NCBI GenBank assembly: GCA_001784055.1
Contig: MFOZ01000019.1
Location: 18,593 to 82,592 of the forward strand
Source of the DNA: Candidatus Levybacteria bacterium RIFCSPLOWO2_01_FULL_42_15
Lineage (GTDB): Bacteria > Patescibacteriota > Microgenomatia > Levybacterales > UBA12049
Length of the DNA stretch: 64,000 nucleotides
Direction of reading: 5' to 3'
Position numbers and translations under genes: made by a program. Within the stretch, counting starts at the first letter, position 1, and each line of letters starts with the position of its first letter. The notes beneath the pieces are model-generated. The model made no database searches and was not told the DNA's origin. It saw only the letters and a list, made by a program, of their open reading frames with translations. Shown piece by piece: positions 3 through 15,751 of this stretch.

Positions 3-605
3 CTGGCCGCAAAAAAACTTGGATATCCAAAAAAGCCTATTATTATAAAGCCCGCCTTTGCAAGTGGCAATCGGGGAGTGTGGTTGATAAAAGAGAATTT
101 TAGTAAAGAACTATTGCATTCACGCGGAATTCCTCGTATCTCAATTGATGAATTTGTCAAGCAAGTTGGAAAACTTAAGCATTTTCCAAAAATAGTTCTT
201 ATGGAATATCTTTCTGGAGATGAATACAGCGTAGACGGATTAGGCGAAAAAGGAAATCCGATTTATGTTATTCCCAGAGTAAGGGTTTCTCCGTTGCCGG
301 GATATTCGCAAGAAGCCCTAATCCATGAAAATAAAGAAGTCAAAGAATATGTAGAACAGATATGCAGGGCATTTGGTTTTGATTCAATATTTAATGTTCA
401 ATTAAAGTATGGCGAAGATGGAAAACCAAAAGTTTACGAGATAAATCCTCGGATTTCAGCAACAGCAGTTGCCAATACTGCAGCAGGAGTTGATCTTTTA
501 CTCTTCAGTATTCTTAAGGAGTTAAAGATTACTTACCCAAAAAATATACAACCCAAGAAAATTCGTATGATACGATTTTGGAAAGAATTTTATACAGATA
601 ATTAA
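3..605 (+). CDS. ATP-grasp domain protein, C-terminal part (5' end outside window)
   Basis: Reading frame is open from the window start (frame beginning at nt 3: LAAKKLGYPKKPIIIKPAFASGNRGVW...). Motifs typical of the ATP-grasp fold (KPxxxSGxxGV, EINPRISA). The ORF-track start at 78 is only the first in-frame ATG. Confidence 0.6.
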   Translation: MAAKKLGYPKKPIIIKPAFASGNRGVWLIKENFSKELLHSRGIPRISIDEFVKQVGKLKHFPKIVLMEYLSGDEYSVDGLGEKGNPIYVIPRVRVSPLPGYSQEALIHENKEVKEYVEQICRAFGFDSIFNVQLKYGEDGKPKVYEINPRISATAVANTAAGVDLLLFSILKELKITYPKNIQPKKIRMIRFWKEFYTDN

Positions 606-609
606 ATAT

Positions 610-2214
610 ATGCCTCAACATGCAGCAGATCTGTTTTTTGCTATCCTAAAGTCTTATGGAGTAAGGCAAATTTTTGGAATTCCCGGCGACGAATTAGAAA
701 TTTTTGATGCATTAGCCCATAGCGGTATTGAATTTATAACTACAAGGCATGAACAGGCAGCAGCATTTATGGCTGAGGCAGTTGGTAAGGCTTTATCCGA
801 ACCTGCAGTTTGTATATCAACCCTTGGTCCCGGGGCAACAAATCTTGTTACTGGTGTTGCAGACGCATATCAGAATAGAGTTCCCATGTTGGTTCTTTCA
901 GGTCAATTGGAAAGAAAATTCCATAAGAATCATCCGCATGCGCATCAGTATATAAACTTATCTCGGTTATTCGCACCGATAACAAAAGCGACATATACTA
1001 TCTCGAGTATTTCTTCAATGCAAGGAACAATTGATAAGGCTTTACAGATCGCAGGAGAAGGAATACAGGGTCCCGTTCATATTACTCTTCCAATAGATGT
1101 TATGGAACAAGAGGTTCGTGGAGTATTTATAAAGAAAAAAAATCCACAGATAAAACCTAATACAATTAGCCCAAGCTTAATTAATAACTATGCAGAATTA
1201 CTACTCAATTCTTCTTATCCAGTAGCATTTTTAGGAAATAAAGGCAATAACATAGATATATCTTTTAGAAATATACTGCAAAAATCACACATCCCTGTCA
1301 TGACATCTTTTATGGGAAAAGGTAGCTTTTCCGAGAAAGAAAGTATGTCGCTGGGGACAGTTAGTAGACATCTCAATGATCAACTTGCTCAACTTGTAAA
1401 AAAAGCAGATCTTATGTTAGTTGTTGATTATGATTATATTGAAGGTGTACAGCCAAAGATGTTTAAAAATAAGAAGATAATCTACATTAATTCATATTCA
1501 GCGAAAGAGGATGCATTACTTTATCCGGTTTGCGAAATAATAGGACATATAGATTCTGTTACAAAATGTTTAGCACAAGAGATGAAACATATTTCCTATT
1601 CAACAAAGTGGAATGAGGCTGAAATAATTGAAGTAAAGAGAAAACGTTATCAGCAAATACTTAATAGTCAACAGATGAATAGTGTTCCATTTAATCCTTT
1701 TAGGGTAATGCAGGTATTACAACAAATTACCACTGGTGATGAGGTCATGGTGTCCGATGTTGGCAATCATAAGCAAGTATTAGGGTTAGGGTATGATGTT
1801 TGTAAGCCACATCATATTCATTTTTCCAATGGACTATCCAGTATGGGATTTTCATTGCCATTTGCTGCAGGGTTGCGATTTACTCTACCTAATGATAAAA
1901 CAATAATTTCAATTAACGGAGATGGTGGTTTTTTAATGAATGTACAGGAACTGGAAACGATAAGAAGATATAACCTTAATATAAAAATAATCATTTTTGT
2001 TGATAATGCTTTCGGTATGATCAAATCTAATCTTCTTGCAAAATATAAGAGAGTCAAAAATTTAGATTTTACTAATCCGGACTTTCACTATCTAGCAAGA
2101 AGTTTTGATTTTCCTTATTTCACAGTTTCAAAGAAAGGGACGATAAAAAAGATAGTACGCAAATTTTTAAATACAGAAGGAACTGCAATATTAACGATTC
2201 CAGTAAAATATTAA
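610..2214 (+). CDS. Thiamine-diphosphate-dependent enzyme (acetolactate-synthase-large-subunit-like / sulfopyruvate-decarboxylase-like)
   Basis: N-terminal TPP pyrimidine-binding domain (GIPGDELEIFDAL...TTRHEQAAAFMAEAVGKA). C-terminal ThDP-binding motif GDGGFLMNVQELETI...N. Length 534 aa is typical. Confidence 0.8.
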   Translation: MPQHAADLFFAILKSYGVRQIFGIPGDELEIFDALAHSGIEFITTRHEQAAAFMAEAVGKALSEPAVCISTLGPGATNLVTGVADAYQNRVPMLVLSGQLERKFHKNHPHAHQYINLSRLFAPITKATYTISSISSMQGTIDKALQIAGEGIQGPVHITLPIDVMEQEVRGVFIKKKNPQIKPNTISPSLINNYAELLLNSSYPVAFLGNKGNNIDISFRNILQKSHIPVMTSFMGKGSFSEKESMSLGTVSRHLNDQLAQLVKKADLMLVVDYDYIEGVQPKMFKNKKIIYINSYSAKEDALLYPVCEIIGHIDSVTKCLAQEMKHISYSTKWNEAEIIEVKRKRYQQILNSQQMNSVPFNPFRVMQVLQQITTGDEVMVSDVGNHKQVLGLGYDVCKPHHIHFSNGLSSMGFSLPFAAGLRFTLPNDKTIISINGDGGFLMNVQELETIRRYNLNIKIIIFVDNAFGMIKSNLLAKYKRVKNLDFTNPDFHYLARSFDFPYFTVSKKGTIKKIVRKFLNTEGTAILTIPVKY

Positions 2215-2235
2215 TTGTAATGCCTCGCAAGCAAA

Positions 2236-2940
2236 TTGCAAGAGCGCACAAGTTATATGCTTAAAGTGGTTGCTTTTGATCTTGATGACACACTGTATCC
2301 AGAAGACCTTTATGTACAAGGTGGTTTGCATGCAGTTGCCTCCTATATAGAGCACACATTCAAAATTAATCGTAATCTTATTTACAAACAATTACTTGCC
2401 GCAAAAGATAAGAATCCAAGAGACAAGGTTTTTGATACGGTACTATCTAAATATAACTTCTATAATTCCTTTATTACCGAAGATTTGATTCGAAAGTACC
2501 GATCTCAAGCGTTGTCCATTACATTATATCCGGGTGTTAAAAAATTACTGGATTCTCTTAAAAAGAAGTATGTTCTTGCTCTTATAACTGATGGGTTAAC
2601 TGTTGTGCAGATGAAAAAAATAAAACATCTTAAAATAGACACATATTTTAATTACATATATTGTACTCAAGATGAAGGAGTTCAAGAAGGAAAACCGGAT
2701 ACTAAATTTTTCCAAAAACTGCTTGATGATGCTTCTATATCATCGCTAGAGGCAATTTATATTGGCAATGATCCCCAGAAAGATTTTCTTGGGCCAAAGA
2801 AGTTAGGAATAAGAACGATTCGCGTATTGCAAGGGAGATATGGAGGAGAAGAAGTGATATCTGGGGCGGAGCCCACTTTTACGATACAAAAGATTAAAAA
2901 TGTAGAAAAACTGCTTAACGATATTAAAAATGAGGACTAG
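2236..2940 (+). CDS. HAD-superfamily hydrolase (phosphatase)
   Basis: Motif I DxDxT (VVAFDLDDTLY). Motif III/IV (YIGNDPQKD). 234 aa. Confidence 0.75.
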   Translation: MQERTSYMLKVVAFDLDDTLYPEDLYVQGGLHAVASYIEHTFKINRNLIYKQLLAAKDKNPRDKVFDTVLSKYNFYNSFITEDLIRKYRSQALSITLYPGVKKLLDSLKKKYVLALITDGLTVVQMKKIKHLKIDTYFNYIYCTQDEGVQEGKPDTKFFQKLLDDASISSLEAIYIGNDPQKDFLGPKKLGIRTIRVLQGRYGGEEVISGAEPTFTIQKIKNVEKLLNDIKNED

Positions 2941-2963: not shown

Positions 2964-3845
2964 TTATATGTAGTCTTTTTCAATGAGGTAGTTTTTGAGT
3001 CCAATGTGCCAATCAGGCATTATATTTAGATTTAGATTTTTAAGGTTCTCATTTCCTAGAACGGAATAAAGTGGCCGTTTGGCCGGCGTATAATATTCTT
3101 TTGAAGTAATAGGTATAAGATGCACCTTTGTATTTGTAATTTTAAAAATTTCCTTGGCAAATGTATACCATGAGCATTCTCCAAGTGCAGAAGCATGATA
3201 GATGCCATAGCTGTCGGTTTTTATGAGTTTATGTATTTGTTTGGCTAAATCAACTGTATAGGTGGGTGCCAAAAACTGATCATTAACTACTCGTACATTC
3301 ATCTTCTCGTGTGCGAATTTTAACATTGTTTCAACAAAGTTTCCACCTTTTAACGAAGAGCCTTTAAGACCAAAAAGACCGCTTGATCGCAAGATAAAAT
3401 ATTTTTTACATATATATCTTGTAAAATATTCGCCCGTGAGCTTGGATAAACCATAGACGTTTAAAGGGCCTGGCGAATCAGTTTCTTTATAGGGAGTAGT
3501 TTTCTTTCTATCCAAGCCAAAGACATAATCAGTGCTGATGTAAACGAGCACACTATTTTGTTGCGAGCAATATTCTGCAAGATTTTTCTGGGCAAAAGCA
3601 TTTATAAGGAATGCTTTTTCAAGATTAGTTTCGCAATCATTAACTCGATGGTAGGCAGCAGTATTAATTACGATATCTGGTTTAATGCGATTAATGACCT
3701 GATTTATTGTATTCTTATCCACAATATCAATATCCTTGTGAGTCAAAGGGAAAAGCTGTATATCGGAGTCTTTGCTAAAAACCTTTATCAAATCAGTTCC
3801 AAGCTGTCCATTTGCTCCAATAACAGCGATGCGTAATTTACTCAT
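2964..3845 (-). CDS. RmlD-family NAD(P)H-dependent 4-keto-sugar reductase (dTDP-4-dehydrorhamnose reductase-like)
   Basis: N-terminal Rossmann motif MSKLRIAVIGANGQLG. RmlD substrate-binding-domain-like length and spacing (293 aa). TDYVFG and YGLSK (YxxxK) motifs. Confidence 0.8.
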   Translation of the reverse strand: MSKLRIAVIGANGQLGTDLIKVFSKDSDIQLFPLTHKDIDIVDKNTINQVINRIKPDIVINTAAYHRVNDCETNLEKAFLINAFAQKNLAEYCSQQNSVLVYISTDYVFGLDRKKTTPYKETDSPGPLNVYGLSKLTGEYFTRYICKKYFILRSSGLFGLKGSSLKGGNFVETMLKFAHEKMNVRVVNDQFLAPTYTVDLAKQIHKLIKTDSYGIYHASALGECSWYTFAKEIFKITNTKVHLIPITSKEYYTPAKRPLYSVLGNENLKNLNLNIMPDWHIGLKNYLIEKDYI

Positions 3846-4398
3846 GTTTTTTTAAGACTTTAGCGGGAACACCTCCTACTACGGTATTTGCTGGAACATC
3901 TTTTACAACCACAGCATTTGCACCTATTATGGCATTATCACCAATAACGACGTCTCCAATAACTTTTGCTCCTGTACATATTGTTACATTTTTCCCAATT
4001 TTGGCACCTATAGATCCCGGATAAACATTTGTTCCCACCATTAAAGGACCAAAAAGAGTAAGATTCTCTCCTGATGAGGCTGTATGCGTAATAATAATTC
4101 CTCGATAATGTAAATAAAAACCTTTTCCAATTATAACACGTGGATGAATATGAATGTCAAAAATGAAATAATTTATATAGAAATAGATTGGATATAAGAC
4201 ATATCCTAAATATCGAATAATGAAGAATTCATGGTTGTATAGATATTGCTCGATCCGGTACATGCAGATAAAAAGCATATTTGGATTATGAAATAAAATA
4301 GCAAATTTGAGAAAAATGTTTTTTTGTTTTTTGCCTAGATCGTGGGCATAGAAGAATCTTTTCCAGTCAGCGGCAATAACAGAAAATACTAAAATCAT
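3838..4398 (-). CDS. Left-handed beta-helix (hexapeptide-repeat) sugar O-acetyltransferase, CysE/WcaB-like
   Basis: C-terminal hexapeptide repeats (IGAKIGKNVTICTGAKVIGDVVIGDNAIIGANAVVVKDVPANTVVGGVPAKVL). N-terminal half resembles the serine-acetyltransferase-like alpha-helical domain. Confidence 0.7.
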   Translation of the reverse strand: MILVFSVIAADWKRFFYAHDLGKKQKNIFLKFAILFHNPNMLFICMYRIEQYLYNHEFFIIRYLGYVLYPIYFYINYFIFDIHIHPRVIIGKGFYLHYRGIIITHTASSGENLTLFGPLMVGTNVYPGSIGAKIGKNVTICTGAKVIGDVVIGDNAIIGANAVVVKDVPANTVVGGVPAKVLKKHE

Positions 4399-4413
4399 AG
4401 ATAGTCCTTTTCG

Positions 4414-5361
4414 TCAAGGTAATTTCTTAACCAAATCAATAATTGTTTCTTCAATTGTTATCTTTGGCGTAAATCCAAGCACATTTTTTGCTTTTGTGGT
4501 TATTATTCGATAAGATCGATCTTTTCTATCGTCTTGTTCAAAAATGATTTTTGGATGTATGGAAAAATGTTTCACCATGGTCTCTTGTACTAACGAAGTA
4601 ATATCTCGAACTCGAAAATTACCGAATCCAATATTGAATATTTGTCGTGCTATATTTTGTTTTGGTGCGGTTAGTGTCTTGTAATATGCTCTAGCTACGT
4701 CGTCAATGTTTATCAGCGGCCTCCACTGAAAACCTTTACAATAGACTCGAATATATCCATTTTTAAGTACACTTCTTACCATAGCATTGACAACAAGATC
4801 AAAGCGCATATTTGGTGAATAACCCAAAACAGTCGCCTTTCTAAAAATAACAACACAAAAATTTTTATCTGCTAACTCTAGAAGTTTTATTTCAGCGTTA
4901 TGTTTTGAAGTGGCATAATGTCCTAACGGGGTTATAGATTCTTGTTCGTTTTTGGGACCATCTTCTTTATCTATACCTTTATCGTATAAGGACGAGCTCG
5001 ATGCAAAAATAAAGCGCTTAACATTCAATTCTTTTGCCTTTTGTGCAAGAGCAATAGTAGCAAGTGTATTTACCTTTTTTGTTTCGTTTGGATCTTTATC
5101 AGAAGATGTTTCATTAGAAAACGCTGCTAAATGTATAATTGCAAAGATATTCTTAAGTAGCATAGGTTCTATTTTCCTAATGTCGTTTTGTATATATTCA
5201 AATTTTTTTTTGCATTGTCGAGGAATTGGTCCGGTAAAAGGGAGAATGTCGATTACGCGTACAGATAAGCCTTTTTTTAACAAATAGCTTACTAAAATTG
5301 ATCCGACGTATCCAGATCCACCGGTAATAAGAATCTTTTGTTGAGCTTGTGAAGTCTTCAC
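4414..5361 (-). CDS. SDR-family NAD-dependent nucleotide-sugar epimerase/dehydratase
   Basis: Motifs ILITGGSGYVGS (GxxGxxG) and YATSK (YxxxK). 315 aa. Confidence 0.8.
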   Translation of the reverse strand: MKTSQAQQKILITGGSGYVGSILVSYLLKKGLSVRVIDILPFTGPIPRQCKKKFEYIQNDIRKIEPMLLKNIFAIIHLAAFSNETSSDKDPNETKKVNTLATIALAQKAKELNVKRFIFASSSSLYDKGIDKEDGPKNEQESITPLGHYATSKHNAEIKLLELADKNFCVVIFRKATVLGYSPNMRFDLVVNAMVRSVLKNGYIRVYCKGFQWRPLINIDDVARAYYKTLTAPKQNIARQIFNIGFGNFRVRDITSLVQETMVKHFSIHPKIIFEQDDRKDRSYRIITTKAKNVLGFTPKITIEETIIDLVKKLP

Positions 5362-6575
5362 TGTGATATGGGATTTAGAGTAACTTTTGGAACATAGAGA
5401 ATAGCGTTATCGTGATACTTTTTACCTCGCAATTCTTTAATTTTCTTAACAATTTCTTTATAAAAATTCCACGACATAATAATAATATGAAGATTTCCTT
5501 TTTCTTTTTGTAAGAGTTCGGGAGACTCTATTGAGATATTTCTTCCCGGAGTAACAAATCCCCATTTTAGAGGATTGTCATCGACGATGTATTCTAGATT
5601 GAGCTTAAAATAATTAAGCATAGTATTTCCTTTAGCAGATGCTCCATATCCAATAACTCTCTCTCCCCTTTTTTTAAAATCCGAAACGAGTTTACGAAGG
5701 TTATTTCGATTTTCTGCTACATTTTTGGCAAAGCGTTTGTAGGTTTGGATATCAAACAACCCACTTTCTTTCTCTTTTTGTATTAATGTAGTAACTTTGT
5801 CTGAATGAGAACTGATGCCCTTTTTTAGGAAGAAACGAATACTACCGCCATGAATAGGAGTTTGGATTAAATCAACAATGTGGAATCTCGAACGTGAAGC
5901 AAGCATAGCAAAAGAGTTGATCAGGAAATATGAAAGATGTTCGTGGTAGACCGTATCGAACTCATTAGATTTAATCATATTATTGCCGTAGGGAAACTCA
6001 AGTATCAAAATACCATCATCTTCCAAAGCCAAGAAACAAGCGAAAAGGAATCTATCAATTCGATCGACATGAGCAAATACATTGGTTCCCGTAATAAGAT
6101 TAAATTTCTTTCCAAGTTTTTTAGCTACTTTTTTGCTCCAGTAGTCAACAATTACAGAAATATTTTTCTTAATAGTAATTTCTCGTAAGTTTCCTGCCGG
6201 ATCAACTCCATACACATCGCACCCCAGTTCTTTAAAAAATTCCAATTGCGTTCCATCGTTGCAAGCAATGTCCAATACTCGTATTTTTTTCTTTTTCACT
6301 CGGGCTACAGCGTCTTTTGCCAACTCTTTACAATGATTTTGGAAGGTTTCTGTTGTTCCGCTGACATAGAGGTAGTTTTTAAACATTAATGCCGGTTTTA
6401 TTACGACACTAAGCATGCTATGGAAGCAGTTTTGGCATAATAATACTTCAAGAGGATATTCTTGCAATTTTTCCTCCTTTTTATGATAGCTATTCGCAAG
6501 TGGCTGCTTACCCAAATTGAGATATAAGAACAAGTTTTTTGCTCCGCAGCAGCGGCACCTTGTGGCTTTTTTCAT
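5358..6575 (-). CDS. NDP-sugar C-methyltransferase family protein (TylCIII-like: N-terminal Zn-ribbon + class I SAM MTase + C-methyltransferase C-terminal domain)
   Basis: N-terminal CxxC...CxxC zinc ribbon (CRCCGAKNL...CQNCFH). Central SAM-binding region (VLDIACNDGTQLEFF). About 400 aa, as in sugar C3/C5 C-methyltransferases. Confidence 0.65.
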   Translation of the reverse strand: MKKATRCRCCGAKNLFLYLNLGKQPLANSYHKKEEKLQEYPLEVLLCQNCFHSMLSVVIKPALMFKNYLYVSGTTETFQNHCKELAKDAVARVKKKKIRVLDIACNDGTQLEFFKELGCDVYGVDPAGNLREITIKKNISVIVDYWSKKVAKKLGKKFNLITGTNVFAHVDRIDRFLFACFLALEDDGILILEFPYGNNMIKSNEFDTVYHEHLSYFLINSFAMLASRSRFHIVDLIQTPIHGGSIRFFLKKGISSHSDKVTTLIQKEKESGLFDIQTYKRFAKNVAENRNNLRKLVSDFKKRGERVIGYGASAKGNTMLNYFKLNLEYIVDDNPLKWGFVTPGRNISIESPELLQKEKGNLHIIIMSWNFYKEIVKKIKELRGKKYHDNAILYVPKVTLNPISQ

Positions 6576-7129
6576 ACGAAAGCTGGATTTTTTTGATATT
6601 CTGCAAAGGTCATACCGCCTCGATCTCTTGTTGAGAGGATTGGATCATTAAATGGCCAGGTGATGGCGAGGTTTTTATCATTCCATAACAATATTTTCTC
6701 GGATAAAGGTGTATAAAATCCTGTGAACTTATATAGTAATTCAGCGGTATCACTAAGGACGGCAAATCCAAAGGCAAACCCAACAGGAACGAAGAGTTGT
6801 TTTTTATTTTCCGCAGATAACTCAATGGTAAACCATTTTCCAAATGTTGGCGATTTTATTTGTAGATCAACAGCGACACAAAATGCTTTTCCATAGATGC
6901 ATCGGATGAGTTTGGTAACAGGAGCTTCCATATTTTGAAAATGGAGACCGCGAAGAACTTTGTATTTTGATCTGGAATGAACTTCCTGGACAAATGTAAG
7001 GTCAAGACCGGCTTTTTGAAAATCACGTTTATGCCAAGACTCAATCAGAAATCCCCGTTCATCTTGAAAGTAGTCGATTTCTATGACAATTAAATCTTTC
7101 AAAGGAGTTTCTATAAGCCTCGTTTTCAT
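6572..7129 (-). CDS. RmlC-like cupin nucleotide-sugar 3,5-epimerase
   Basis: Conserved FxDxRGxF...LRGLHFQ block (FQDERGFLIESWH...KVLRGLHFQ). The ORF track extends to 7294, but the internal Met at 7129 gives the canonical ~186-aa size and frees a divergent promoter region. Confidence 0.7.
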   Translation of the reverse strand: MKTRLIETPLKDLIVIEIDYFQDERGFLIESWHKRDFQKAGLDLTFVQEVHSRSKYKVLRGLHFQNMEAPVTKLIRCIYGKAFCVAVDLQIKSPTFGKWFTIELSAENKKQLFVPVGFAFGFAVLSDTAELLYKFTGFYTPLSEKILLWNDKNLAITWPFNDPILSTRDRGGMTFAEYQKNPAFV

Positions 7130-7169: not shown

Positions 7170-8180
7170 TTGGAATTTATGGCAAAATCATCGGATAATC
7201 CTTTAGTGTCAATTATTATTCCTTTGCACTGGGGCTTGAAACCGGAAAATTTTCCCCGGTTTCTCACTGATTTAAAAAAATACGACAAGCTCAAATACCA
7301 ACACTACGAGATTCTTGTTGTGACAGATAAGCCAATTGTTCCTGTTATCACAGGAAAGAAGGTTCGTTGTCTCGTAATGAATATAAATCATCCAACTACT
7401 GGGACAGAAAAACGTGATTTTGCTCTGCCTTTTGTAAAAGGCGAGATCTGCGCTTTTATAGATGATGATGCATATCCTGATTCCAACTGGCTTACCAATG
7501 CGATTCCTTGGTTTAAATACGAGAGAATCGTAGCGGTTGGTGGTCCAGGAGTTACTCCTCTTGAAGATTCGTTCTGGCAAAAGATAGGAGGATATGCTAT
7601 TGAGTCATATTTTTGTAGCGGCAATATTCAATACCGTTTTTATCCCACATTTGAACGCTTCAGTAAAGATCAACCTGGATATAATTTGTTGGTTCGGACA
7701 TCTGTTTTAAAGAAAGTAAAAGGATGGGGAACAACATTCTACGGAGGGGAAGATACAGTTCTTTGTATAAAATTATTAAAGTTTGGAAAAATTCTTCATG
7801 ACCCTAATATTATTGTATATCACCATCGTCGAACATTTCCTTTTGGACATCTAAAACAAATTGGTAGTGTAGGATTACATAGGGGATACTTTTTTAAGAA
7901 GTATCCGCAGACCTCGCGAGGCACTTTCTATCTTCTGCCAACGATTTTAACACTGGGATTTATAAGCGGAATTGTATTAGTAGTGCGTTTTCCTCAATTA
8001 TTTGCTTTGCCATTTGTCTTAGTATTTTTATTTTTTCTTTTACTTGGTACAATCTCGGTCTACCGACATAAAGTCGATATTACGAGTTCTCTCATAGCAA
8101 GCATTGCTATTATGATGACACATATGTCATATGGCGTTTTTTTTGTAAAAGGTTTATTAACGCACCACTTAAATAAGTAA
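7170..8180 (+). CDS. Glycosyltransferase family 2 with C-terminal transmembrane segment
   Basis: GT2 motifs VSIIIPLH...DDDAYPD. Hydrophobic C-terminus with about 3 TM helices. Confidence 0.75.
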   Translation: MEFMAKSSDNPLVSIIIPLHWGLKPENFPRFLTDLKKYDKLKYQHYEILVVTDKPIVPVITGKKVRCLVMNINHPTTGTEKRDFALPFVKGEICAFIDDDAYPDSNWLTNAIPWFKYERIVAVGGPGVTPLEDSFWQKIGGYAIESYFCSGNIQYRFYPTFERFSKDQPGYNLLVRTSVLKKVKGWGTTFYGGEDTVLCIKLLKFGKILHDPNIIVYHHRRTFPFGHLKQIGSVGLHRGYFFKKYPQTSRGTFYLLPTILTLGFISGIVLVVRFPQLFALPFVLVFLFFLLLGTISVYRHKVDITSSLIASIAIMMTHMSYGVFFVKGLLTHHLNK

Positions 8181-8187: not shown

Positions 8188-9204
8188 ATGCATCTGCCAA
8201 AGATTACATGTTGTGTTAGGACGTATAATGAGGAAAAACGTATTGCAGAATGTTTAAGAGGTATATTTGGCCAAAATTATCCTAGACAACTTTTGGAAGT
8301 AATCCTCGTAGATGATATTTCCACAGATAAAACAATCGCAATTGCAGAAAATTTTCCTGTAAAAATCTTAATCAATGAGACTGGCAATGCCGAGATATCA
8401 TTGATTAGAGGTTTTAAAGAATCAACTGGCACATTTTTTACAGTTGTTGATGCGGATATGTTCTTTCGGGGAAAAAATTGGTTCCAAAAAATGCTAAAAC
8501 CTCTCTTAGAAAACCCTGATATATCAGCCGCATTTACGGGATATTATTCCCATAAAAGAAACTCACTCATTACAAAATATTTGAATCTCGATTCGATCCA
8601 GCGAGACTTAGTGTATCAAATTTTTTCTCCAGGATTTAATGAAGTAATTAATGAGAAGAAAAACGGTTATTACGTTTGTCAATACTCTGTCAATAAAATT
8701 CCACCGCAGGTTCATGGTCTTTATAGAAGTTCTATTTTAAAAAAAATACTCGTTAATGAGATAGATTATCATGATATGATAAAGCTCGTGATCTTAGTTG
8801 ATAAAGGATATAAAAAATTTGCCTATGTTCCTCAGGCAGGATATTACCATTTCCATGTTGATTCTTTATTACATCTGGGGAAAAAACGAATTCGAAACAT
8901 AAAAGAGAGATATCTAGATTTTTATACAAATAAGAATCATTACAAATGGTTTGATGCATCAGATTCTGCTCGTATTAAAAGAACGTTTTTCCTTATCCTT
9001 GCTACATACTTGATATTGCCATTATGTTTGTTTTCACTGTCTAGAGCGTTAATACGGAGAAACCTACTCTATCTTCTTGAACCTGCAGTAACTTTTGTTA
9101 TCGTAAGTGCAATATTATACGCATTTTTATCAGATAAAAGAGGTAGAAAATTTATCATTCTTCAATTTGCTAAAATAGTACATCTACCTAAAGGAAAATC
9201 CTAA
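8188..9204 (+). CDS. Glycosyltransferase family 2 with C-terminal transmembrane segment
   Basis: GT2 N-terminal fold (ITCCVRTYNEEKRIAECL...VILVDDISTDKT; DADMFF). C-terminal TM helices. Confidence 0.75.
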   Translation: MHLPKITCCVRTYNEEKRIAECLRGIFGQNYPRQLLEVILVDDISTDKTIAIAENFPVKILINETGNAEISLIRGFKESTGTFFTVVDADMFFRGKNWFQKMLKPLLENPDISAAFTGYYSHKRNSLITKYLNLDSIQRDLVYQIFSPGFNEVINEKKNGYYVCQYSVNKIPPQVHGLYRSSILKKILVNEIDYHDMIKLVILVDKGYKKFAYVPQAGYYHFHVDSLLHLGKKRIRNIKERYLDFYTNKNHYKWFDASDSARIKRTFFLILATYLILPLCLFSLSRALIRRNLLYLLEPAVTFVIVSAILYAFLSDKRGRKFIILQFAKIVHLPKGKS

Positions 9205-9205: not shown

Positions 9206-10381
9206 ATGATAGAGCAGGCTGTAATTTTGGCGGGCGGTCAGGGAAAAAGATTTCGTCCCCTCACATTGACTACTCCAAAGCCAATGATATTATTCCATGG
9301 AAAGCCTTTTTTTGCATACATTATAGAAATGCTTAAAAAAAACGGCATTAAAGAAGTAATTATTTTGACAGGTTATTTGCATGAAAAAATAGAGGATTAT
9401 TTTAAAGATGGACAAGAATTTGGTTTAAAAATAAAATATTCTTTTAGTCCAGTCGATGATGAAACAGGAACAAGAGTTAGAAAAGCAAAAAATTTAATTG
9501 CTGACACATTTCTTCTTTTGTATGGAGATAATTATTGGCCATTACAGTTGGATGAGCTTTTTAGGTTTTACAAAAAAATGAATACACAAGGATTAGTTAC
9601 GGTATACTCAAACATCGATAACTATACGAAAAACAACACTTTTGTTAACGATAAAGGACTGGTTGAGGTTTATGATAAAAGCCGACGAGCATCAGGATTG
9701 AACGGAGTAGATGTCGGATTTTTTATTTTGAGAAAAAGTATTTTAAAAAGTTTTCCGGAAGATAATTTCTCGTTTGAAAAAGTAATTCTGCCGAAAATGA
9801 TCGCGGAAAAACAACTTGCTGGATTCTTAACCTGCCATAAGTATTATGGATTAAGTAATTTAGAAAGAATACCGGTTATTGAAGAATTTTTTAAGCCAAA
9901 AAAAGTTATCTTGCTTGATAGGGACGGAGTAATTAATAAAAAACCTCCAAAAGCGGAATATATAAAAAATTGGAGCGAATTTAAATTTTTGCCGGGAGCA
10001 ATTGATGCGCTAAAGCTATTAACTAAGAAGGGATACCGAATTATTCTTATCTCCAATCAGGCGGGAATCGGAAGAGGAGCAATGACAGAAGAAGACCTTA
10101 AGAAAATTCATAAAAAGTTTTTGGAAGTATGCAGAAAAGAAGGAATTAATCTTACCGGAATTTATCACTGTCCCCATAATTGGGATGAGGGATGTTTTTG
10201 CAGGAAGCCAAAACCAGGCATGTTGTTTAAGGCGGCAGCTGATCATAATTTCGATCTAACAAAAACAATTTTCATCGGAGATGATGAGCGCGACGAGCAA
10301 GCAGGAAAAGCCGCTAATTGCAAAACTATATCATTGCACCAAGGACAAAATTTATTAGTTATTGTAAAAACTTTAGCGTAA
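9206..10381 (+). CDS. Bifunctional D-glycero-alpha-D-manno-heptose-1-phosphate guanylyltransferase (HddC-like NTP-transferase) fused to D,D-heptose-1,7-bisphosphate phosphatase (GmhB-like HAD)
   Basis: N-terminal sugar-1-P nucleotidyltransferase signature AVILAGGQGKRFRPLTLTTPKPM. C-terminal GmhB motifs (ILLDRDGVINKK; CPH...CFCRKPKPGM zinc site; GDDERD). Confidence 0.8.
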   Translation: MIEQAVILAGGQGKRFRPLTLTTPKPMILFHGKPFFAYIIEMLKKNGIKEVIILTGYLHEKIEDYFKDGQEFGLKIKYSFSPVDDETGTRVRKAKNLIADTFLLLYGDNYWPLQLDELFRFYKKMNTQGLVTVYSNIDNYTKNNTFVNDKGLVEVYDKSRRASGLNGVDVGFFILRKSILKSFPEDNFSFEKVILPKMIAEKQLAGFLTCHKYYGLSNLERIPVIEEFFKPKKVILLDRDGVINKKPPKAEYIKNWSEFKFLPGAIDALKLLTKKGYRIILISNQAGIGRGAMTEEDLKKIHKKFLEVCRKEGINLTGIYHCPHNWDEGCFCRKPKPGMLFKAAADHNFDLTKTIFIGDDERDEQAGKAANCKTISLHQGQNLLVIVKTLA

Positions 10382-10393
10382 AATGTTTTTATT

Positions 10394-11374
10394 ATGATTA
10401 TTTCGAGAACGCCACTTAGAATAAGTTTTGTTGGAGGAGGGAGCGATATCGCTTCTTTTTACCATCACACGTCTGGTGCTGTTGTTTCGACCGCAATTAA
10501 TAAATACATTTATATTGCAGTAAATAGGCAATTTGACGGAAGAATTCTTGTAAATTATTCAAAAACAGAAATTGTTACGAAAATTTCCGATATAGAAAAT
10601 AATTTAGTTAGAGAAGCGCTTAAATTAACAGGCGTAACGGGCGGAATTCACATAATATCCATAGCGGATATTCCTTCTGAAGGAACAGGAATGGGGTCAT
10701 CCAGTTCATATATTGTCGGACTTTTAAATGCGCTATATGCATATCAAGGAAAACATATAAATGCAGAAAAATTAGCAAAACAAGCATGTCAAATTGAGAT
10801 AGATATACTAAAAAAACCTATTGGTAAACAAGATCAATACATTGCCGCATACGGAGGGCTTCAACATATTAAGTTTAATTCAGATGAATCTGTTTATGTT
10901 GATCCAATTATTTGCAAGATGGAAACAAAAAAAACTCTTGAAAAGAGATTATTGCTTTTCTATACGGGTATTATGCGATCCGCAGACCCAATTTTGGCAA
11001 AACAAACAAAAAATATGGCATCCCTTACCGCAAAGAGGAAAATTATGAGTAAAATGGTACAGCTGGCAAGAGAGATGAGTAATGCGCTGAATAATAATAA
11101 ATTAAATGATTTTGGTAAGATGTTGCATGAAAATTGGATTTTTAAAACACAAATGGCACAGGGAGTTTCAAGTCTTCAGATTGATAGCTGGTATAAACTT
11201 GCCATAAAAAATGGAGCTATTGGCGGAAAGCTTTTGGGAGCGGGTGGGGGCGGTTTTCTCCTTTTTTATGCACCAGAAGAGAAACACGAGAAAATTATCA
11301 TCGCTCTTTCAGATTTATCCTATCAAAAGTTTTCATTCGAACCTCAAGGAAGTAAAATTATTTTTATTGATTAA
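10394..11374 (+). CDS. hddA: GHMP-family D-glycero-alpha-D-manno-heptose-7-phosphate kinase
   Basis: GHMP kinase motifs (PLRISFVGGGSDIASFY; GMGSSSS). Located between HddC/GmhB and GmhA. Confidence 0.8.
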   Translation: MIISRTPLRISFVGGGSDIASFYHHTSGAVVSTAINKYIYIAVNRQFDGRILVNYSKTEIVTKISDIENNLVREALKLTGVTGGIHIISIADIPSEGTGMGSSSSYIVGLLNALYAYQGKHINAEKLAKQACQIEIDILKKPIGKQDQYIAAYGGLQHIKFNSDESVYVDPIICKMETKKTLEKRLLLFYTGIMRSADPILAKQTKNMASLTAKRKIMSKMVQLAREMSNALNNNKLNDFGKMLHENWIFKTQMAQGVSSLQIDSWYKLAIKNGAIGGKLLGAGGGGFLLFYAPEEKHEKIIIALSDLSYQKFSFEPQGSKIIFID

Positions 11375-11377
11375 ATT

Positions 11378-12040
11378 ATGAAGAAGAAAAAAAGCGCGTT
11401 ACTCAGTCCAAAAGACTTTATAGAAGACTACATATTTGAGTTAAGTCGTTGTCTTAAATCTCTGGATAAAACAAAATTAGAGCTCATTATTGATGTTCTT
11501 ATTAATGCATACAAAAAAGATAAGAAAGTATTTATCTTAGGAAATGGCGGAAGCGCTACTACGGCCTCACATATGGCATGTGATTTGGGAAAGGGTACGT
11601 TGCAAAGAATATACGACAATACGGAGAGAAGATTTCGAGTTATTTCACTCACTGACAACGTGGCTATTATGACGGCTTTTGCAAACGATTTGAGTTTTGA
11701 TGATATTTTTATCCAACAGCTTAGGAATTTAGTTGAAACAGACGATGTTGTCATAGCGCTTTCCGGAAGCGGAAATAGCCCTAACGTAGTTAAGGCAATG
11801 GAATACGCTAAATTATGCGGAGCGAAAACTATCGGCATTCTTGGATTTAAAACTGGGGGAAAACTTGGGAATATGGTAGATTATTCAATTATTGCTGACA
11901 GCAACCATTATGGGCCAATTGAGGACATACAATTAATTCTTAATCATATGATCGCCGCATGGATTGCAAGAATTAAGAATATTCATGATGGGAAACCATA
12001 TGCAAAAAACGAGAATAAAAATAGCCCGTTTAAAAATTGA
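11378..12040 (+). CDS. gmhA: Sedoheptulose-7-phosphate isomerase (SIS domain)
   Basis: SIS-domain motif VFILGNGGSATTASHMACDL and size (220 aa) as in GmhA. Confidence 0.85.
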   Translation: MKKKKSALLSPKDFIEDYIFELSRCLKSLDKTKLELIIDVLINAYKKDKKVFILGNGGSATTASHMACDLGKGTLQRIYDNTERRFRVISLTDNVAIMTAFANDLSFDDIFIQQLRNLVETDDVVIALSGSGNSPNVVKAMEYAKLCGAKTIGILGFKTGGKLGNMVDYSIIADSNHYGPIEDIQLILNHMIAAWIARIKNIHDGKPYAKNENKNSPFKN

Positions 12041-12045: not shown

Positions 12046-12858
12046 TTATCTAAAGAGATAAAAATATATATCTGATAAAGAAAATGGCTTATTATTCTTT
12101 TTAAATTTTTTAATGTCGGCCAAAGTAGGAAATGAAAAGTATTGCTTTTCATTTGGATGAAATCGGGCAAAAATTTCGATTTTATTGCTCGTTATATTCT
12201 TTAAAGCTTTTATCGTAGGGCCAATACTCTTATCAAATCCAAGAATATAGTTTTTAAATAAGGAATTGTTTTTAATTAAAGGAATAATTTCTTGATAAAC
12301 GACATTTCCTTGGTCTACTTTCGGTGTCATGAAATGAATGCTTACTCCAAACTCTTTTTCATTATAAAACATGGCCCAAAAAACTGGCAATACTCCGCCA
12401 TATTTTGGCAAAAGCGCAGTATGTCTATTAATGCATGCAATTTGAGGTAATTCTAAAAGATTTTTTTTAAATATCTGTCCCGAAGAAGAAATAATAATAT
12501 CAATATTTAATTTTCTTAAATAAGCAAGATGTTTACGGCTGTTAACATTATCTATTTTCACATACGGAACGTGAAATATGCGAGCAATTGATTGTACGGA
12601 GTATGTATTTTTTATTTGTATCTTATCCAAAAGATTTCTCACAAAACTCAATACTGCTATGCTAATAAAACCGAGGGTGCCCCATAAATGATATTGTTCA
12701 AGTAAGTAGTATGGAAATCCTTTTTTATAAATTTCCTTTAAGACGGTAACCCCAATAATTTTAAATTCCTTATCTGGTAGCTTTTGGAACAATCCTAAAA
12801 AATAATGAGGATGGAAAAGATTTTCTTCTGTAAGAATAAGATAGATTCGTTTTTTCAT
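12046..12858 (-). CDS. Formyltransferase-family protein (sugar N-formyltransferase-like)
   Basis: Fmt/PurN-type catalytic block INRHTALLPKYGGVLPVFWA (HxSLLPxxRG-like). 270 aa. Sits next to a sugar aminotransferase. Confidence 0.6.
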   Translation of the reverse strand: MKKRIYLILTEENLFHPHYFLGLFQKLPDKEFKIIGVTVLKEIYKKGFPYYLLEQYHLWGTLGFISIAVLSFVRNLLDKIQIKNTYSVQSIARIFHVPYVKIDNVNSRKHLAYLRKLNIDIIISSSGQIFKKNLLELPQIACINRHTALLPKYGGVLPVFWAMFYNEKEFGVSIHFMTPKVDQGNVVYQEIIPLIKNNSLFKNYILGFDKSIGPTIKALKNITSNKIEIFARFHPNEKQYFSFPTLADIKKFKKNNKPFSLSDIYFYLFR

Positions 12859-13730
12859 TAAACAATTTTTCTACTTTTAAGATATTCCATGCAAGTCTGA
12901 AAGGAGAAATTAGCTAATAGGTGTTCAAACATATTGTTAACAGATATCTTATAGGGTAAAAAAAGTGGATTTTTTAAAAAACTTTCTTGCTCGTCTGGTA
13001 TATATTTTTTTGATTTGGATTTTGGCATAATGAGTTGCCAGTTGTGAATAAAAAGATTTGCTACTTCCCCCTTTTTGCTATATGCAGATAATTTTTTTGC
13101 ATAATACTCTTTTTTTAGAATGCTCCAGAAATAACTTGACCCAAAAGGAATGCCAAATCGAAATAAATTTTCTAAAGATATGCTACTTGGAAATGAAATA
13201 TCAGAAATGCTTGGATTGTAGGATTGATTTGCTACGGATACAGGTAGCTCATAAATGCCATCAAAATTATATATACGTCCTGAATTTCCATAAGTGGATG
13301 AAGAATAGAGAAAGCCCCAATCTTTTAAGATATTGTAACCCTCTTTAAAAAAAACAATATTTGGCGCCTGGAAGCCCTTTACGTGATACTTTTGCAACAA
13401 ATTTTTTGATGCTTCAAGTTCATTTTTCAGAATTTTTTCATTATCTATATAACTATGTGAATAGCCATGCCAACCTATTTCATGGCCTTCTGCTTGTATC
13501 TTTTTTAGTAATCCTGGATATAATTCTTCTAATTTAAATACAACAAAAAAGGTAATTTTCTGATTATATTTTTTTAACACATCTAAAACAAATTGTAACG
13601 CCGATACAATATAATCATTGTCAAGTTGTCGAAGCTTCGCATTTGATAAATTATACTTATTGATTTTTCTTGAAACCACCCAGGATTCAAAATCCATGCA
13701 AAGGAGGTGAGAAAAGCCATTTTTTTCCAT
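12858..13730 (-). CDS. Polysaccharide deacetylase (NodB-homology, DUF3473-type)
   Basis: N-terminal MDFESW (DVEDW-like) motif. GHEIGWHGYSH motif (NodB His-His metal site). Confidence 0.6.
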   Translation of the reverse strand: MEKNGFSHLLCMDFESWVVSRKINKYNLSNAKLRQLDNDYIVSALQFVLDVLKKYNQKITFFVVFKLEELYPGLLKKIQAEGHEIGWHGYSHSYIDNEKILKNELEASKNLLQKYHVKGFQAPNIVFFKEGYNILKDWGFLYSSSTYGNSGRIYNFDGIYELPVSVANQSYNPSISDISFPSSISLENLFRFGIPFGSSYFWSILKKEYYAKKLSAYSKKGEVANLFIHNWQLIMPKSKSKKYIPDEQESFLKNPLFLPYKISVNNMFEHLLANFSFQTCMEYLKSRKIV

Positions 13731-14533: not shown

Positions 14534-14623
14534 ATATCTATTATATTTCTAAACGTATCTAATCGCAACTTGCTCACTTTAATGATACAATTGGGTTTAA
14601 GTCAATGCAGTAGAATTGAAAAT

Positions 14624-15742: not shown

Positions 15743-15751
15743 TATTAGCTT

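Follow-up and report, generated by a model that had tools for sequence, protein, structure and literature searches.

What sugar is made by the minus-strand operon at positions 2964-7129 of a 64,000-nucleotide stretch of DNA (hereafter the window) from Candidatus Levybacteria bacterium RIFCSPLOWO2_01_FULL_42_15, and from which sugar nucleotide is it made? A sequence-only reading had described the region as four genes resembling known GDP-6-deoxy-heptose branches, with an added C-methyltransferase. Our preferred reading, which we hold tentatively and at a probability of roughly 0.4, is that the operon converts an NDP-sugar, probably the adjacent GDP-heptose, to a C-methyl-branched, L-series, O-acetylated sugar in which the oxygen at C6 is kept.

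Layout and gene content

Open reading frame calls and domain matches resolve the region unambiguously into five translationally coupled genes, transcribed in the order RmlC-like cupin, C-methyltransferase, extended SDR, acetyltransferase and RmlD-like reductase (Table 1). The four genes described earlier are real and correctly placed, and their assignments as RmlD-like, RmlC-like and Zn-ribbon C-methyltransferase are borne out by domain matches, but the acetyltransferase had been omitted. The cupin, C-methyltransferase and SDR genes are joined by 4-bp overlaps (6572-6575 and 5358-5361), a 15-bp gap separates the SDR from the acetyltransferase (4398 to 4414), and the acetyltransferase and reductase overlap by 8 bp (3838-3845). 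A plus-strand operon ending at 2940 is convergent with this block.

Table 1. Genes of the operon and of its surroundings in the window
Feature	Position	Strand	Matches and prediction
RmlC-like cupin	6572-7129	-	PF00908 E=2e-61; predicted NDP-4-keto-sugar 3,5- or 5-epimerase; first gene
C-methyltransferase, TylC3/TcaB9/MtmC family	5358-6575	-	N-terminal Zn-binding PF08421, SAM PF13489, C-terminal PF08484 (E=8e-40); SAM-dependent
Extended SDR, Cj1427 superfamily	4414-5361	-	PF01370 E=2e-38; predicted NDP-sugar C4 oxidoreductase
Hexapeptide-repeat O-acetyltransferase, EpsC/CysE/WcaB-like	3838-4398	-	PF00132
RmlD-like NAD(P)H-dependent 4-ketoreductase	2964-3845	-	PF04321 E=4e-85; last gene
GT2 glycosyltransferase	7170-8180	+	PF00535; C-terminal hydrophobic region, probably membrane-spanning
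Second GT2 glycosyltransferase, same operon	8188-9204	+	PF00535 E=3e-22
Heptose genes (next three rows)	9206-12040
HddC::GmhB fusion: sugar-1-phosphate nucleotidyltransferase (HddC/GDP-mannose-pyrophosphorylase type) and heptose 1,7-bisphosphate phosphatase	9206-10381	+	PF00483 and HAD; NF006506 163.9 bits, TIGR00213 123 bits
HddA-like GHMP kinase (D-glycero-D-manno-heptose 7-phosphate kinase)	10394-11374	+	NF049969 E=3e-45, 155 bits (under 600-bit cutoff); GHMP N- and C-terminal domains
GmhA-like sedoheptulose-7-phosphate isomerase (SIS domain)	11378-12040	+	TIGR00441 E=1e-29, 103 bits (under cutoff); PF13580
Formyltransferase	12046-12858
NodB-type deacetylase	12858-13730
SAM methyltransferases, two	13751-14533 and 22919-23518
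DegT aminotransferase	14483-15742
ManC-like gene	36118-37203		TIGR01479, 224 bits
Hexapeptide acetyltransferases			four in the neighbourhood

Enzyme families of the operon

The SDR had been read as a dehydratase. Its motifs are GGSGYVGS, SSSSLY and YATSK, of which SSSSLY replaces the S-T-D/S-E-V-Y of 4,6-dehydratases, leaving the Thr-Asp/Ser-Glu catalytic pair absent. It scores 22.7 bits against the gmd model (cutoff 415), 80.8 bits against the RmlB model (cutoff 365) and only 88 bits against PF16363, and no NCBIfam model matches it above that model's own cutoff. Among solved structures the closest match is 6VO6 (E=3e-28), a 313-aa C. jejuni protein named as Cj1427, GDP-heptose C4-dehydrogenase, which is 32% identical and has the motif SP(N/R)MR(F/L)DL(V/L)VN in common with it. 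Judged by sequence, the SDR is a member of the Cj1427 C4-dehydrogenase superfamily, and a role as 4,6-dehydratase is rejected on the missing catalytic pair, the low gmd and RmlB scores and this placement. Cj1427 carries out the C4 oxidation of GDP-heptose that precedes epimerisation by a cupin and reduction at C4 (PMC10680097). The SDR is predicted to be a keto-generating C4 oxidoreductase. The distance from Cj1427 is nevertheless considerable, with ordinary 4-epimerases matching almost equally (85 vs 102 bits), and this weighs against our preferred reading.

The window holds two SDR open reading frames in total, neither of them dehydratase-like. No RmlA, RmlB, GMD-like enzyme or dehydratase-type SDR lies within the window or the 10 kb upstream of it (74 kb), over which tblastn with six queries likewise found no RmlA or RmlB orthologue; two SDRs upstream reach 165 and 202 bits on the RmlB model (cutoff 365) and are without the Asp-Glu pair. 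With no gene for 6-deoxygenation in these 74 kb, a "deoxy" sugar, and with it the 6-deoxy-heptose of the earlier reading, is unsupported.

The C-methyltransferase, labelled by NCBI as a hypothetical protein (OGH42850.1), has as its closest solved relatives the mycarose 3-C-methyltransferase 4RV9 (231 bits) and TcaB9 (178 bits), and its Y-x-E-H motif is aligned as YHEH with YDEH in TcaB9. The operon product is most likely a C-methyl-branched sugar; this part of the earlier prediction is sound.

The cupin exceeds the TIGR01221 cutoff (207.8 bits, cutoff 155.75), and its 185-aa start matches the gene-caller choice on sibling contigs. Its match to dTDP RmlC (S. enterica 1DZR, the closest solved relative) reaches 180 bits, far above the 67-77 bits obtained with heptose epimerases of C. 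jejuni. The catalytic equivalents His63, Lys73 and Tyr133 are retained, as are the hexose-type Ser52 and Phe122, positions taken by Ile and His in those heptose epimerases. Relative to S. enterica the window lineage carries N50V, D84C, H120F and F27L; H120 is a proposed O4-binding residue and D84 its proposed partner (PMC7949155).

The reductase likewise passes TIGR01214 (305.8 bits, cutoff 224), with B. anthracis RmlD 3SC6 as closest solved relative (227 bits). This is no proof of dTDP use, since homologues 59-62% identical to it in related genomes sit beside FnlA/PseB-like (UDP-HexNAc-type) genes without RmlA, RmlB or RmlC. The rhamnose-like character of both enzymes, each above an NCBIfam equivalog cutoff, does however count against our preferred reading, as does the hexose-type pocket of the cupin. 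The acetyltransferase falls under the cutoffs of its best models (NF041874 EpsC, 105.5 bits; TIGR01172, 96.7 bits).

Related loci and the neighbouring heptose genes

About 130 related loci were compared, including 80-81 genome loci picked via the SDR and 25 metagenome loci picked via the HddC::GmhB fusion. Over this set the SDR family neighbours C-methyltransferases, cupins and heptose genes (HddC::GmhB, HddA, GmhA), and hardly ever a dehydratase. A TylC3-type C-methyltransferase occurs in about 25 of 80 SDR-picked loci, mostly directly adjacent, and in one gammaproteobacterial case (L012) the two are fused in a protein of 763 aa followed by RmlD; the SDR and C-methyltransferase are functionally coupled across phyla. 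A dehydratase-motif SDR is nearby in only 6 of 81 SDR-picked loci.

Among the 25 fusion-picked loci, ten have the SDR family (nine within 3 kb), eight the C-methyltransferase, eleven the cupin and only one RmlB. Single operons combine C-methyltransferase, SDR, a second SDR, HddC::GmhB, HddA and GmhA (L103) or SDR, C-methyltransferase, cupin, SDR, HddC::GmhB and HddA (L114). Module and heptose operon recur together in another species (L094), with 65-91% amino acid identity in the module proteins (SDR 76%) and 80-86% in the heptose genes. A 331-336-aa GT2 divergent from and adjoining RmlC is found there and in L090 and L091, while in L092 a GT2 follows RmlD; in L091 an acetyltransferase homologue (46% identical) lies between two GT2 genes adjoining RmlC-SDR. 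The GT2 at 7170-8180 is likely the transferase for the module product. It accompanies the module as a conserved partner in L090 and L091 and here shares a transcript with the heptose genes, to which it thereby ties the module.

Heptose-linked clades flank the SDR clade of the window on both sides in the SDR tree, but this clade is itself associated with RmlC and RmlD and is not the heptose-linked one. No heptose genes lie within 10 kb of the module in its closest relatives (L007, L090, L091 and L092), relative to which the heptose genes here look like an insertion; the RmlC/RmlD association of the clade and this lack of heptose genes both stand against our preferred reading. The same is true of the nucleotide: the N-terminal domain of the fusion looks GDP-type, with 69-85 bits for Yersinia HddC and the GDP-mannose pyrophosphorylases against 43 bits for RmlA, yet characterised RmlC, RmlD and TylC3-type enzymes use dTDP-sugars, with no obvious match between the two.

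The aminotransferase, formyltransferase, four acetyltransferases, NodB deacetylase and two SAM methyltransferases that the sequence-only reading had assigned to one heavily decorated sugar are all present. The modification blocks are, however, found apart from one another in related genomes, pointing to several parallel sugar pathways rather than one sugar with every modification.

Candidate starting sugars and proposed route

The main alternative, unlikely in our estimate although a serious one, is a dTDP-6-deoxyhexose route. It calls for RmlA and RmlB genes in the part of the genome outside the 74 kb searched, and their possible presence there itself tells against our preferred reading. These enzymes would supply dTDP-4-keto-6-deoxy-D-glucose, to be methylated at C3 (or C5), epimerised by RmlC and reduced by RmlD to dTDP-3-C-methyl-L-rhamnose, of nogalose, noviose or vinelose type. 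The SDR would then act either as a 4-epimerase or as an alternative 4-ketoreductase whose product is the 6-deoxy-L-talo epimer, the acetyltransferase would decorate the product, and the heptose genes would be mere neighbours in a glycan island. Consistent with this are the equivalog scores and bona fide dTDP relatives of the cupin and reductase, the retained Ser52 and Phe122, the use of dTDP-4-keto-deoxysugars by every solved C-methyltransferase relative and the lack of heptose genes beside the module in close relatives. Genuine dTDP-rhamnose genes also surround the nearest non-CPR members of the SDR clade and its sister clade, the hosts being an archaeon, a deltaproteobacterium, a bathyarchaeon and an actinobacterium; the genes at these loci include RmlB at 380 bits with an RmlA-type transferase at 198 bits, under the 360.65 cutoff (L009), long-form RmlA at 480-490 bits (L011, L014), and RmlA, RmlB, RmlD and RmlC with a C-methyltransferase (L031). 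Against such a route, RmlA and RmlB are missing both from the 74 kb and from the vicinity in 8 of 8 related candidate-phyla-radiation-type glycan loci examined, and close RmlD-like homologues occur without rml genes. Further, neither the 128-165 insert nor the S121...Y181 spacing of the known dTDP-L-rhamnose 4-epimerases WbiB/Tle (PMC11549994) is present in the SDR, which would be left without a necessary role despite its fusion to the C-methyltransferase in L012, and the cupin is without the His120/Asp84 pair and Asn50. Clustering of SDR and cupin with dTDP-rhamnose enzymes, given an RmlA/RmlB pair elsewhere, had been named beforehand as the sign of ordinary rhamnose synthesis; the cupin and reductase do group with those enzymes, whereas the SDR does not and the pair is absent from the 74 kb.

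The same oxidation, methylation, epimerisation and reduction could also act on an NDP-hexose of the general pool (GDP-mannose via the ManC-like enzyme of the window, or UDP- or dTDP-glucose) to give a 3-C-methyl-L-hexose keeping O6, the heptose being used unmodified by another transferase. We regard this as rather improbable. The coupling of a keto-generating SDR to the C-methyltransferase applies equally to it, in close relatives the surroundings of the module contain no heptose genes and no nucleotidyltransferase, the cupin pocket is hexose-type, and 3-C-methyl-D-mannose of the H. pylori O-antigen is a natural precedent for a non-deoxy C-methyl sugar (PMC12961483). No positive link to any one hexose nucleotide was seen, however, RmlC/RmlD-type enzymes making non-deoxy L-hexoses are undocumented, and the heptose operon is on the same transcript as the conserved GT2 of the module both here and in L094.

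The original proposal, in which a DmhA/WcbK-type GDP-heptose 4,6-dehydratase, a 3,5-epimerase and a 4-reductase yield GDP-6-deoxy-(C-methyl)-heptose, is highly improbable: heptose-nucleotide genes do lie next door and the families superficially fit, but the SDR motifs, family and gmd and PF16363 scores contradict it, the cupin type differs, and the reductase is RmlD-type, unlike the GDP-fucose-synthase-type DdahC/MlghC (PMC7949155), so that cupin and reductase both depart from the Campylobacter, Yersinia and Burkholderia scheme.

Gene identities, family membership, gene-neighbourhood counts and the lack of dehydratase residues and, in the 74 kb, of dehydratase genes come directly from the sequences. 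For our preferred reading we infer which way the SDR reaction runs, where the methyl group goes, in what sequence the steps occur, and the identity of nucleotide and substrate, as follows. Synthesis may begin from the heptose that HddC::GmhB, HddA and GmhA of the neighbouring operon, cotranscribed with the GT2, would form. The SDR would oxidise the C4 hydroxyl to a ketone without 4,6-dehydration, and the C-methyltransferase would add a methyl group from SAM to the enolisable centre, most likely C3 by analogy with its solved relatives. The cupin would invert C5 (and C3 if still epimerisable), the reductase would restore the C4 hydroxyl, the hexapeptide transferase would O-acetylate the sugar or sugar residue, and the divergent GT2 would transfer the product, a C-methyl-heptose. 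If this is correct, the module would be a variant built from known kinds of enzyme in which the sugar is oxidised instead of deoxygenated.

The module and its oxidoreductase

Five minus-strand genes occupy positions 2964-7129, one more than the four of the sequence-only reading, the extra gene being that of an acetyltransferase (see table). The domain matches of all five products lie far above chance level, and the genes are joined by overlaps of 4 bp, 4 bp and 8 bp with a single gap of 15 bp, which indicates that the module is one translationally coupled operon. Divergent from the cupin gene is a plus-strand operon with two GT2 genes and a GDP-heptose synthesis set (GmhA, HddA, GmhB and HddC), all four components of which score below their NCBIfam equivalog cutoffs. 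In three strain variants (L001, L005 and L006) a 160-bp insertion sits precisely at the junction of the acetyltransferase and RmlD-like genes, after the stop of the first and before the start of the second, and supplies the RmlD-like gene with a GGAAGGAG-type ribosome-binding site; in the window and the homologous loci L002 and L003 the two share 8 bp instead.

Features of the window and of homologous loci (window positions unless a locus is named)
Feature	Position	Strand	Remarks
RmlD-like reductase	2964-3845	-	PF04321, E=4e-85
Hexapeptide acetyltransferase	3838-4398	-	PF00132
Acetyltransferase/RmlD-like overlap	3838-3845		window, L002, L003
Extended SDR	4414-5361	-	PF01370, E=2e-38
C-methyltransferase	5358-6575	-	PF08421 + PF13489 + PF08484
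RmlC-like cupin	6572-7129	-	PF00908, E=2e-61
GT2	7170-8180	+	operon divergent from cupin
GT2	8188-9204	+	same operon
Nucleotidyltransferase::GmhB fusion (HddC::GmhB)	9206-10381	+	operon with both GT2 genes
HddA-like kinase	10394-11374	+	operon with both GT2 genes
GmhA-like isomerase	11378-12040	+	operon with both GT2 genes
160-bp insertion	L001 13237-13376		L001, L005, L006
Operon converging on module	L001 6275-9996 (10 kb upstream) and window 78-2940	+	SDR, SDR, PIG-L deacetylase, ATP-grasp ligase, ThDP enzyme, HAD hydrolase
Upstream SDRs	L001 6275-7231 and 7228-8187	+	first two genes of converging operon
DegT block	window 14483-17930; L007 6059-9385; L090 1365-5182		DegT aminotransferase, 503-aa membrane protein, PglD-like acetyltransferase
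Polytopic membrane proteins	18847-21300; 26996-30133; 30123-31598		817, 1045 and 491 aa
Housekeeping region	37946-63803		glycyl-tRNA synthetase, purF-like, recO-like, then mraZ-rsmH-ftsI-murE-murC-murB-murA...murF-mraY-ftsW-murG
C-methyltransferase::SDR fusion	L012 1736-4027		763 aa, then RmlD
C-methyltransferase::cupin fusion	L009 4063-5736		557 aa, RmlC-like cupin
RmlD-like homologues	L142 8578-10882; L143 8532-10837; L144 10001-10894		59-62% identical

At the site where 4,6-dehydratases have S-T-D/S-E-V-Y, the window SDR has SSSSLY, and it passes no NCBIfam model (GalE 96 bits, RmlB 81, gmd 22.7 against a cutoff of 415), scoring 88 bits with PF16363. Its closest solved structure is 6VO6 (102 bits, E=3e-28), a 313-aa C. 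jejuni protein that is 32% identical over the full length and matches Cj1427, the GDP-heptose C4-dehydrogenase; PMC10680097 cites the structure paper of that enzyme. Cj1427 is marked by tightly bound NADH, alpha-ketoglutarate recycling and net C4 oxidation, a step that precedes the Cj1430 cupin epimerase and the Cj1428 reductase (PMC10680097). The window SDR family and Cj1427 have an SPxMRxDLxVN motif in common, and the window protein carries the GxxGxxG and Ser/Tyr/Lys of the Cj1427 type without the dehydratase acid/base residues; in a neighbour-joining tree it falls inside the Cj1427 superfamily, in another clade than Cj1427 itself. On these sequence features it is predicted to be a C4 oxidoreductase generating a 4-keto group. 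The earlier assignment as a 4,6-dehydratase is contradicted by the absent Asp/Glu pair, the gmd score and the superfamily membership. We also rejected a dTDP-L-rhamnose 4-epimerase of the WbiB/Tle type, comparing by published description: that enzyme is an RmlB paralogue with S121, Y181, K185 and a 128-165 insert (PMC11549994), and the window SDR has Ser121/122, Tyr149, Lys153 and no insert.

An SDR with a dehydratase motif was found neither in the window, which has only two SDR ORFs, nor in the 10 kb upstream, taken from sibling contigs, and tblastn with six verified RmlA/RmlB queries detected no orthologue of either in the combined 74 kb. The best RmlB-like match there is 32% identical and lacks Asp-Glu, and the nucleotidyltransferases of the 74 kb are the HddC-like fusion, a ManC-like and a GlmU-like protein. 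The terms "dehydratase" and "deoxy", and with them the previously predicted 6-deoxy product, are thus unsupported. Two upstream SDRs were considered as the missing RmlB and rejected at 165 and 202 bits against a cutoff of 365; their motifs are SSPEVYG and STCMIY, the Asp-Glu pair is missing in both, and the closest solved structures of the first are 4-epimerases and decarboxylases. The operon in which they lie also encodes an acetolactate-synthase-like ThDP enzyme, which at 411.9 bits against a cutoff of 509 is not a bona fide ALS. We take it to resemble enzymes of YerE-type two-carbon sugar branching, and by this analogy it could provide a second, different C-branching activity at the same locus.

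The proposal of a sugar C-methyltransferase with an N-terminal Zn ribbon was borne out by PF08421 (50.3 bits), PF13489 (58.5 bits) and PF08484 (136.6 bits) domains and by the CxCC...CxxC motifs of a four-Cys Zn domain, in a protein annotated as hypothetical in its NCBI record (OGH42850.1). Its closest solved relatives are the dTDP-sugar 3-C-methyltransferases MtmC (231 bits) and TcaB9 (178 bits), with which it aligns at a Y-x-E-H active-site motif (YHEH in the window protein and MtmC, YDEH in TcaB9). Bruender and Holden reportedly assigned roles to Y222, E224 and H225 of TcaB9 as an active-site cluster.

GDP-heptose as the favoured substrate

The robust result is the chemistry encoded: a Cj1427-superfamily oxidoreductase, a C-methyltransferase, a cupin epimerase, a ketoreductase and an acetyltransferase, with no dehydratase. 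In the route that we propose, C4 oxidation by the SDR would be followed by C-methylation, epimerisation, C4 reduction and O-acetylation, and a GT2 would transfer the product. We favour GDP-heptose as the substrate of this route, with a probability of about 0.4. Heptose genes adjoin the module in the window and in L094, a locus of a second species with the same module and heptose operon (module proteins 65-91% identical, SDR 76%, heptose genes 80-86%); they are co-transcribed with the GT2 that is the conserved partner of the module; and the 74 kb contain no other keto-generating enzyme. The transferase domain of the window HddC::GmhB protein appears to be GDP-type by its solved relatives, scoring 69-85 bits with GDP-mannose pyrophosphorylases and Yersinia HddC versus 43 bits with RmlA. 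Tentatively, the module and HddC::GmhB-HddA-GmhA would jointly make a GDP-C-methyl-heptose independently of a dehydratase, the TylC3-type methyltransferase exploiting the SDR keto group.

Counts at the family level also point to heptose. Among 25 metagenome loci with an HddC::GmhB fusion and at least 6 kb of flank each, the SDR family is present in 10 (40%), nine of them within 3 kb, a C-methyltransferase in 8 (about a third), a cupin in 11 and RmlB in a single locus. Single operons combine C-methyltransferase, SDR, a further SDR-family member, HddC::GmhB, HddA and GmhA in L103, with a fusion 80% identical to that of the window, and SDR-family member, C-methyltransferase, cupin, SDR, HddC::GmhB and HddA in L114. 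Together with L094, these data point to a real enrichment of C-methyltransferases and Cj1427-family SDRs beside GDP-heptose genes, and suggest that C-methyl-heptose pathways, so far undescribed, occur widely among environmental bacteria; in the literature searched we found no paper describing a C-methyl heptose. In a tree of the C-methyltransferases, the neighbours of the window protein were heptose-linked in 156 of 200 bootstraps (78%) and MtmC in 37 of 200, weak figures from a biased sample.

In 80 loci of species-representative genomes chosen through the SDR and scored with a reference panel, a TylC3-type C-methyltransferase adjoins the SDR family in about 25, and the SDR is often beside a cupin, a small nucleotidyltransferase or HddA/GmhA/HddC::GmhB genes; a dehydratase-motif SDR is nearby in only 6 of 81 loci. 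A gammaproteobacterial MAG (L012) encodes the C-methyltransferase fused to a Cj1427-family SDR. The pairing is sometimes fused, is found in roughly one third of the HddC::GmhB loci and spans many phyla. It could represent a general route, not yet characterised, to C-methyl sugars that retain the C6 oxygen. An archaeal locus (L009) has a C-methyltransferase fused to an RmlC-like cupin, adjoining a hexose 2,3-dehydratase and a DegT aminotransferase.

A conserved DegT block lies beside the RmlC-SDR module in related loci; in the window the block is separated from the module by inserted heptose, GT2, formyltransferase, deacetylase and methyltransferase genes. Its 503-aa membrane protein has no Pfam match, and its aminotransferase could conceivably also be fed by the keto-sugar of the SDR. 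The blocks occur independently in related genomes, and the idea of one sugar bearing all the nearby amino-, formyl-, acetyl- and methyl- modifications is not upheld. Three large polytopic membrane proteins amid the glycosyltransferases may be GT-C-type extracytoplasmic glycosyltransferases using lipid-linked sugars; the 817-aa protein, the only one scanned, has no Pfam match. With mraZ to murG downstream, the glycan island borders a cell-wall and division cluster, and where it meets the housekeeping genes GC rises from about 0.33 to about 0.40.

Rhamnose-like features and hexose substrates

The module might instead make a dTDP-3-C-methyl-6-deoxy-L-hexose, with RmlA and RmlB encoded elsewhere, a possibility that we regard as somewhat doubtful. 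It draws on the likeness of two proteins to rhamnose enzymes: the cupin scores 207.8 bits with the rmlC model TIGR01221 (equivalog cutoff 155.75) and the reductase 305.8 bits with the rmlD model TIGR01214 (cutoff 224), and their closest solved relatives, each at about 45-55% identity as estimated from the alignment, are S. enterica RmlC (180 bits, versus 67-77 for the C. jejuni GDP-heptose epimerases) and B. anthracis RmlD 3SC6 (227 bits). As an argument for dTDP sugars, however, both similarities are weak. A cupin from Brevundimonas, which adjoins an SDR of the window family with HddC-like and HddA genes 7-9 kb off, likewise scores RmlC (160 bits) far above the C. jejuni heptose epimerases (55 bits), and ranking against solved structures was rejected as a test between heptose and hexose. 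Nor was passing TIGR01214 accepted as proof of dTDP use, given homologues 59-62% identical in FnlA/PseB-type loci without rml genes (L142-L144). The RmlD-like gene directly follows PIG-L deacetylase and formyltransferase genes in L142 and L143 and has other SDR genes on both sides in L144; FnlA/PseB-like, WbcJ-like and UDP-GlcNAc 2-epimerase genes lie near, a UDP-6-deoxy-L-HexNAc rather than a dTDP-rhamnose context. The GDP-L-fucose synthase Fcl is absent from the NCBIfam matches of the window reductase, which is RmlD-type and not of the GDP-fucose-synthase type of DdahC, MlghC and Cj1428.

Residues of the cupin pocket bear on both substrates. Of the RmlC set His63, Lys73, Tyr133 and Asp170, the alignment was read at the first three, and their equivalents are kept; the non-catalytic N50, D84 and H120 are V, C and F, with a further substitution at F27. 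For His120 a contact to O4 has been proposed, with Asp84 as its partner (PMC7949155), and the loss of these two and Asn50 in the window-lineage cupin hints at an altered substrate. Base-contact mapping, suggestive and with its register set by DdahB numbering alone, points to F27L and N50V. Ser52 and Phe122 are hexose-type, DdahB having Ile and His there, in favour of a dTDP-6-deoxyhexose.

Genomic context adds to the case for dTDP. In the tree, Cj1427 belongs to one heptose-linked clade; the window SDR belongs to a distinct clade that goes with RmlC and RmlD, and more heptose-operon clades lie beyond, on the other side of that clade. Non-CPR members of the window clade and its sister group, in other phyla, are embedded in genuine rml clusters, with RmlB (380 bits) and an RmlA-type transferase (198 bits, below cutoff) in L009, long-form RmlA (480-490 bits) in L011 and L014, and RmlA, RmlB, RmlD and RmlC together with a C-methyltransferase in L031. 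In close relatives the conserved core is RmlC, SDR and RmlD, present in L007 (SDR 62% identical), in L092 (45%) with a GT2, and in L091 (56%) with RmlD 2 kb away; L090 (75%) has RmlC, C-methyltransferase and SDR, and 7 kb from these an RmlD-like gene. These four closest relatives have neither heptose genes nor RmlA/RmlB within 10 kb. The same chemistry on another NDP-hexose we consider unlikely. Were RmlA and RmlB encoded elsewhere, the locus would be a rather ordinary one of the 3-C-methyl-rhamnose type, though its host is unusual.

Relation to known pathways and significance

The GDP-D-glycero-L-gluco-heptose pathway of C. jejuni HS:2 comprises the Cj1427 C4-dehydrogenase, the Cj1430 C3/C5-epimerase and the Cj1428 C4-reductase. 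As there, C4 would be oxidised without dehydration by an SDR of the same superfamily, an RmlC-fold cupin would epimerise and C4 would be reduced, and the window genes adjoin GmhA/HddA/GmhB/HddC-type genes. Unlike the HS:2 system, the window SDR belongs to a different clade, its cupin is far nearer to dTDP RmlC than to Cj1430, its reductase is RmlD-type, and a C-methyltransferase and an acetyltransferase are inserted. The dTDP-L-rhamnose pathway is matched in the RmlC-like and RmlD-like proteins, both above equivalog cutoffs, but the 74 kb lack RmlA/RmlB, the cupin is changed at N50, D84, H120 and F27, and an unrelated SDR and the C-methyltransferase lie between the rmlC-like and rmlD-like genes. 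Among antibiotic C-methyl deoxysugars, compared for noviose (NovW/NovU/NovS), nogalose, mycarose (TylC3, MtmC) and tetronitrose (TcaB9), the methyltransferases have the same Zn ribbon, SAM domain, PF08484 and Y-x-E-H, and the cupin epimerase, C-methyltransferase and RmlD-like reductase presumably mirror the NovW/NovU/NovS set. Those pathways, in contrast, begin at an RmlB-type 4,6-dehydratase and lead to 6-deoxy sugars of secondary metabolites, whereas the window set lacks a dehydratase and sits in a cell-envelope glycan island of a CPR bacterium.

The likeness to GDP-6-deoxy-heptose systems (Yersinia DmhA/DmhB, Burkholderia WcbK, C. jejuni DdahA-C and MlghB/C) drawn by the sequence-only reading holds for the adjacent GDP-heptose genes at 9206-12040, the cupin epimerase and an SDR reductase. 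It fails for the defining GMD-like 4,6-dehydratase, which is missing, and for the reductase, which is of another SDR family than the GDP-fucose-synthase type; a dehydratase-based 6-deoxy-heptose scheme is highly improbable.

To our knowledge, every characterised TylC3-family sugar C-methyltransferase acts after a 4,6-dehydratase, and the C-methyl sugars known from these routes are therefore 6-deoxy. Should the keto group come from a Cj1427-type dehydrogenase, there would be a second, dehydratase-free entry to branched-sugar biosynthesis. As far as we know, the glycans of CPR bacteria are essentially unknown. The H. pylori O-antigen contains a C-methyl sugar with its C6 hydroxyl intact, 3-C-methyl-D-mannose, a D-hexose (PMC12961483), the structure of which is known and for which no pathway was reported in the papers searched; it is the kind of sugar expected from a dehydratase-free route from SDR to C-methyltransferase. 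If the proposed route is correct, new sugars would be predicted on CPR surfaces, either C-methyl-heptoses or non-deoxy C-methyl-L-hexoses, and orphan structures such as 3-C-methyl-D-mannose, the making of which the route could explain, would gain a concrete set of candidate genes.
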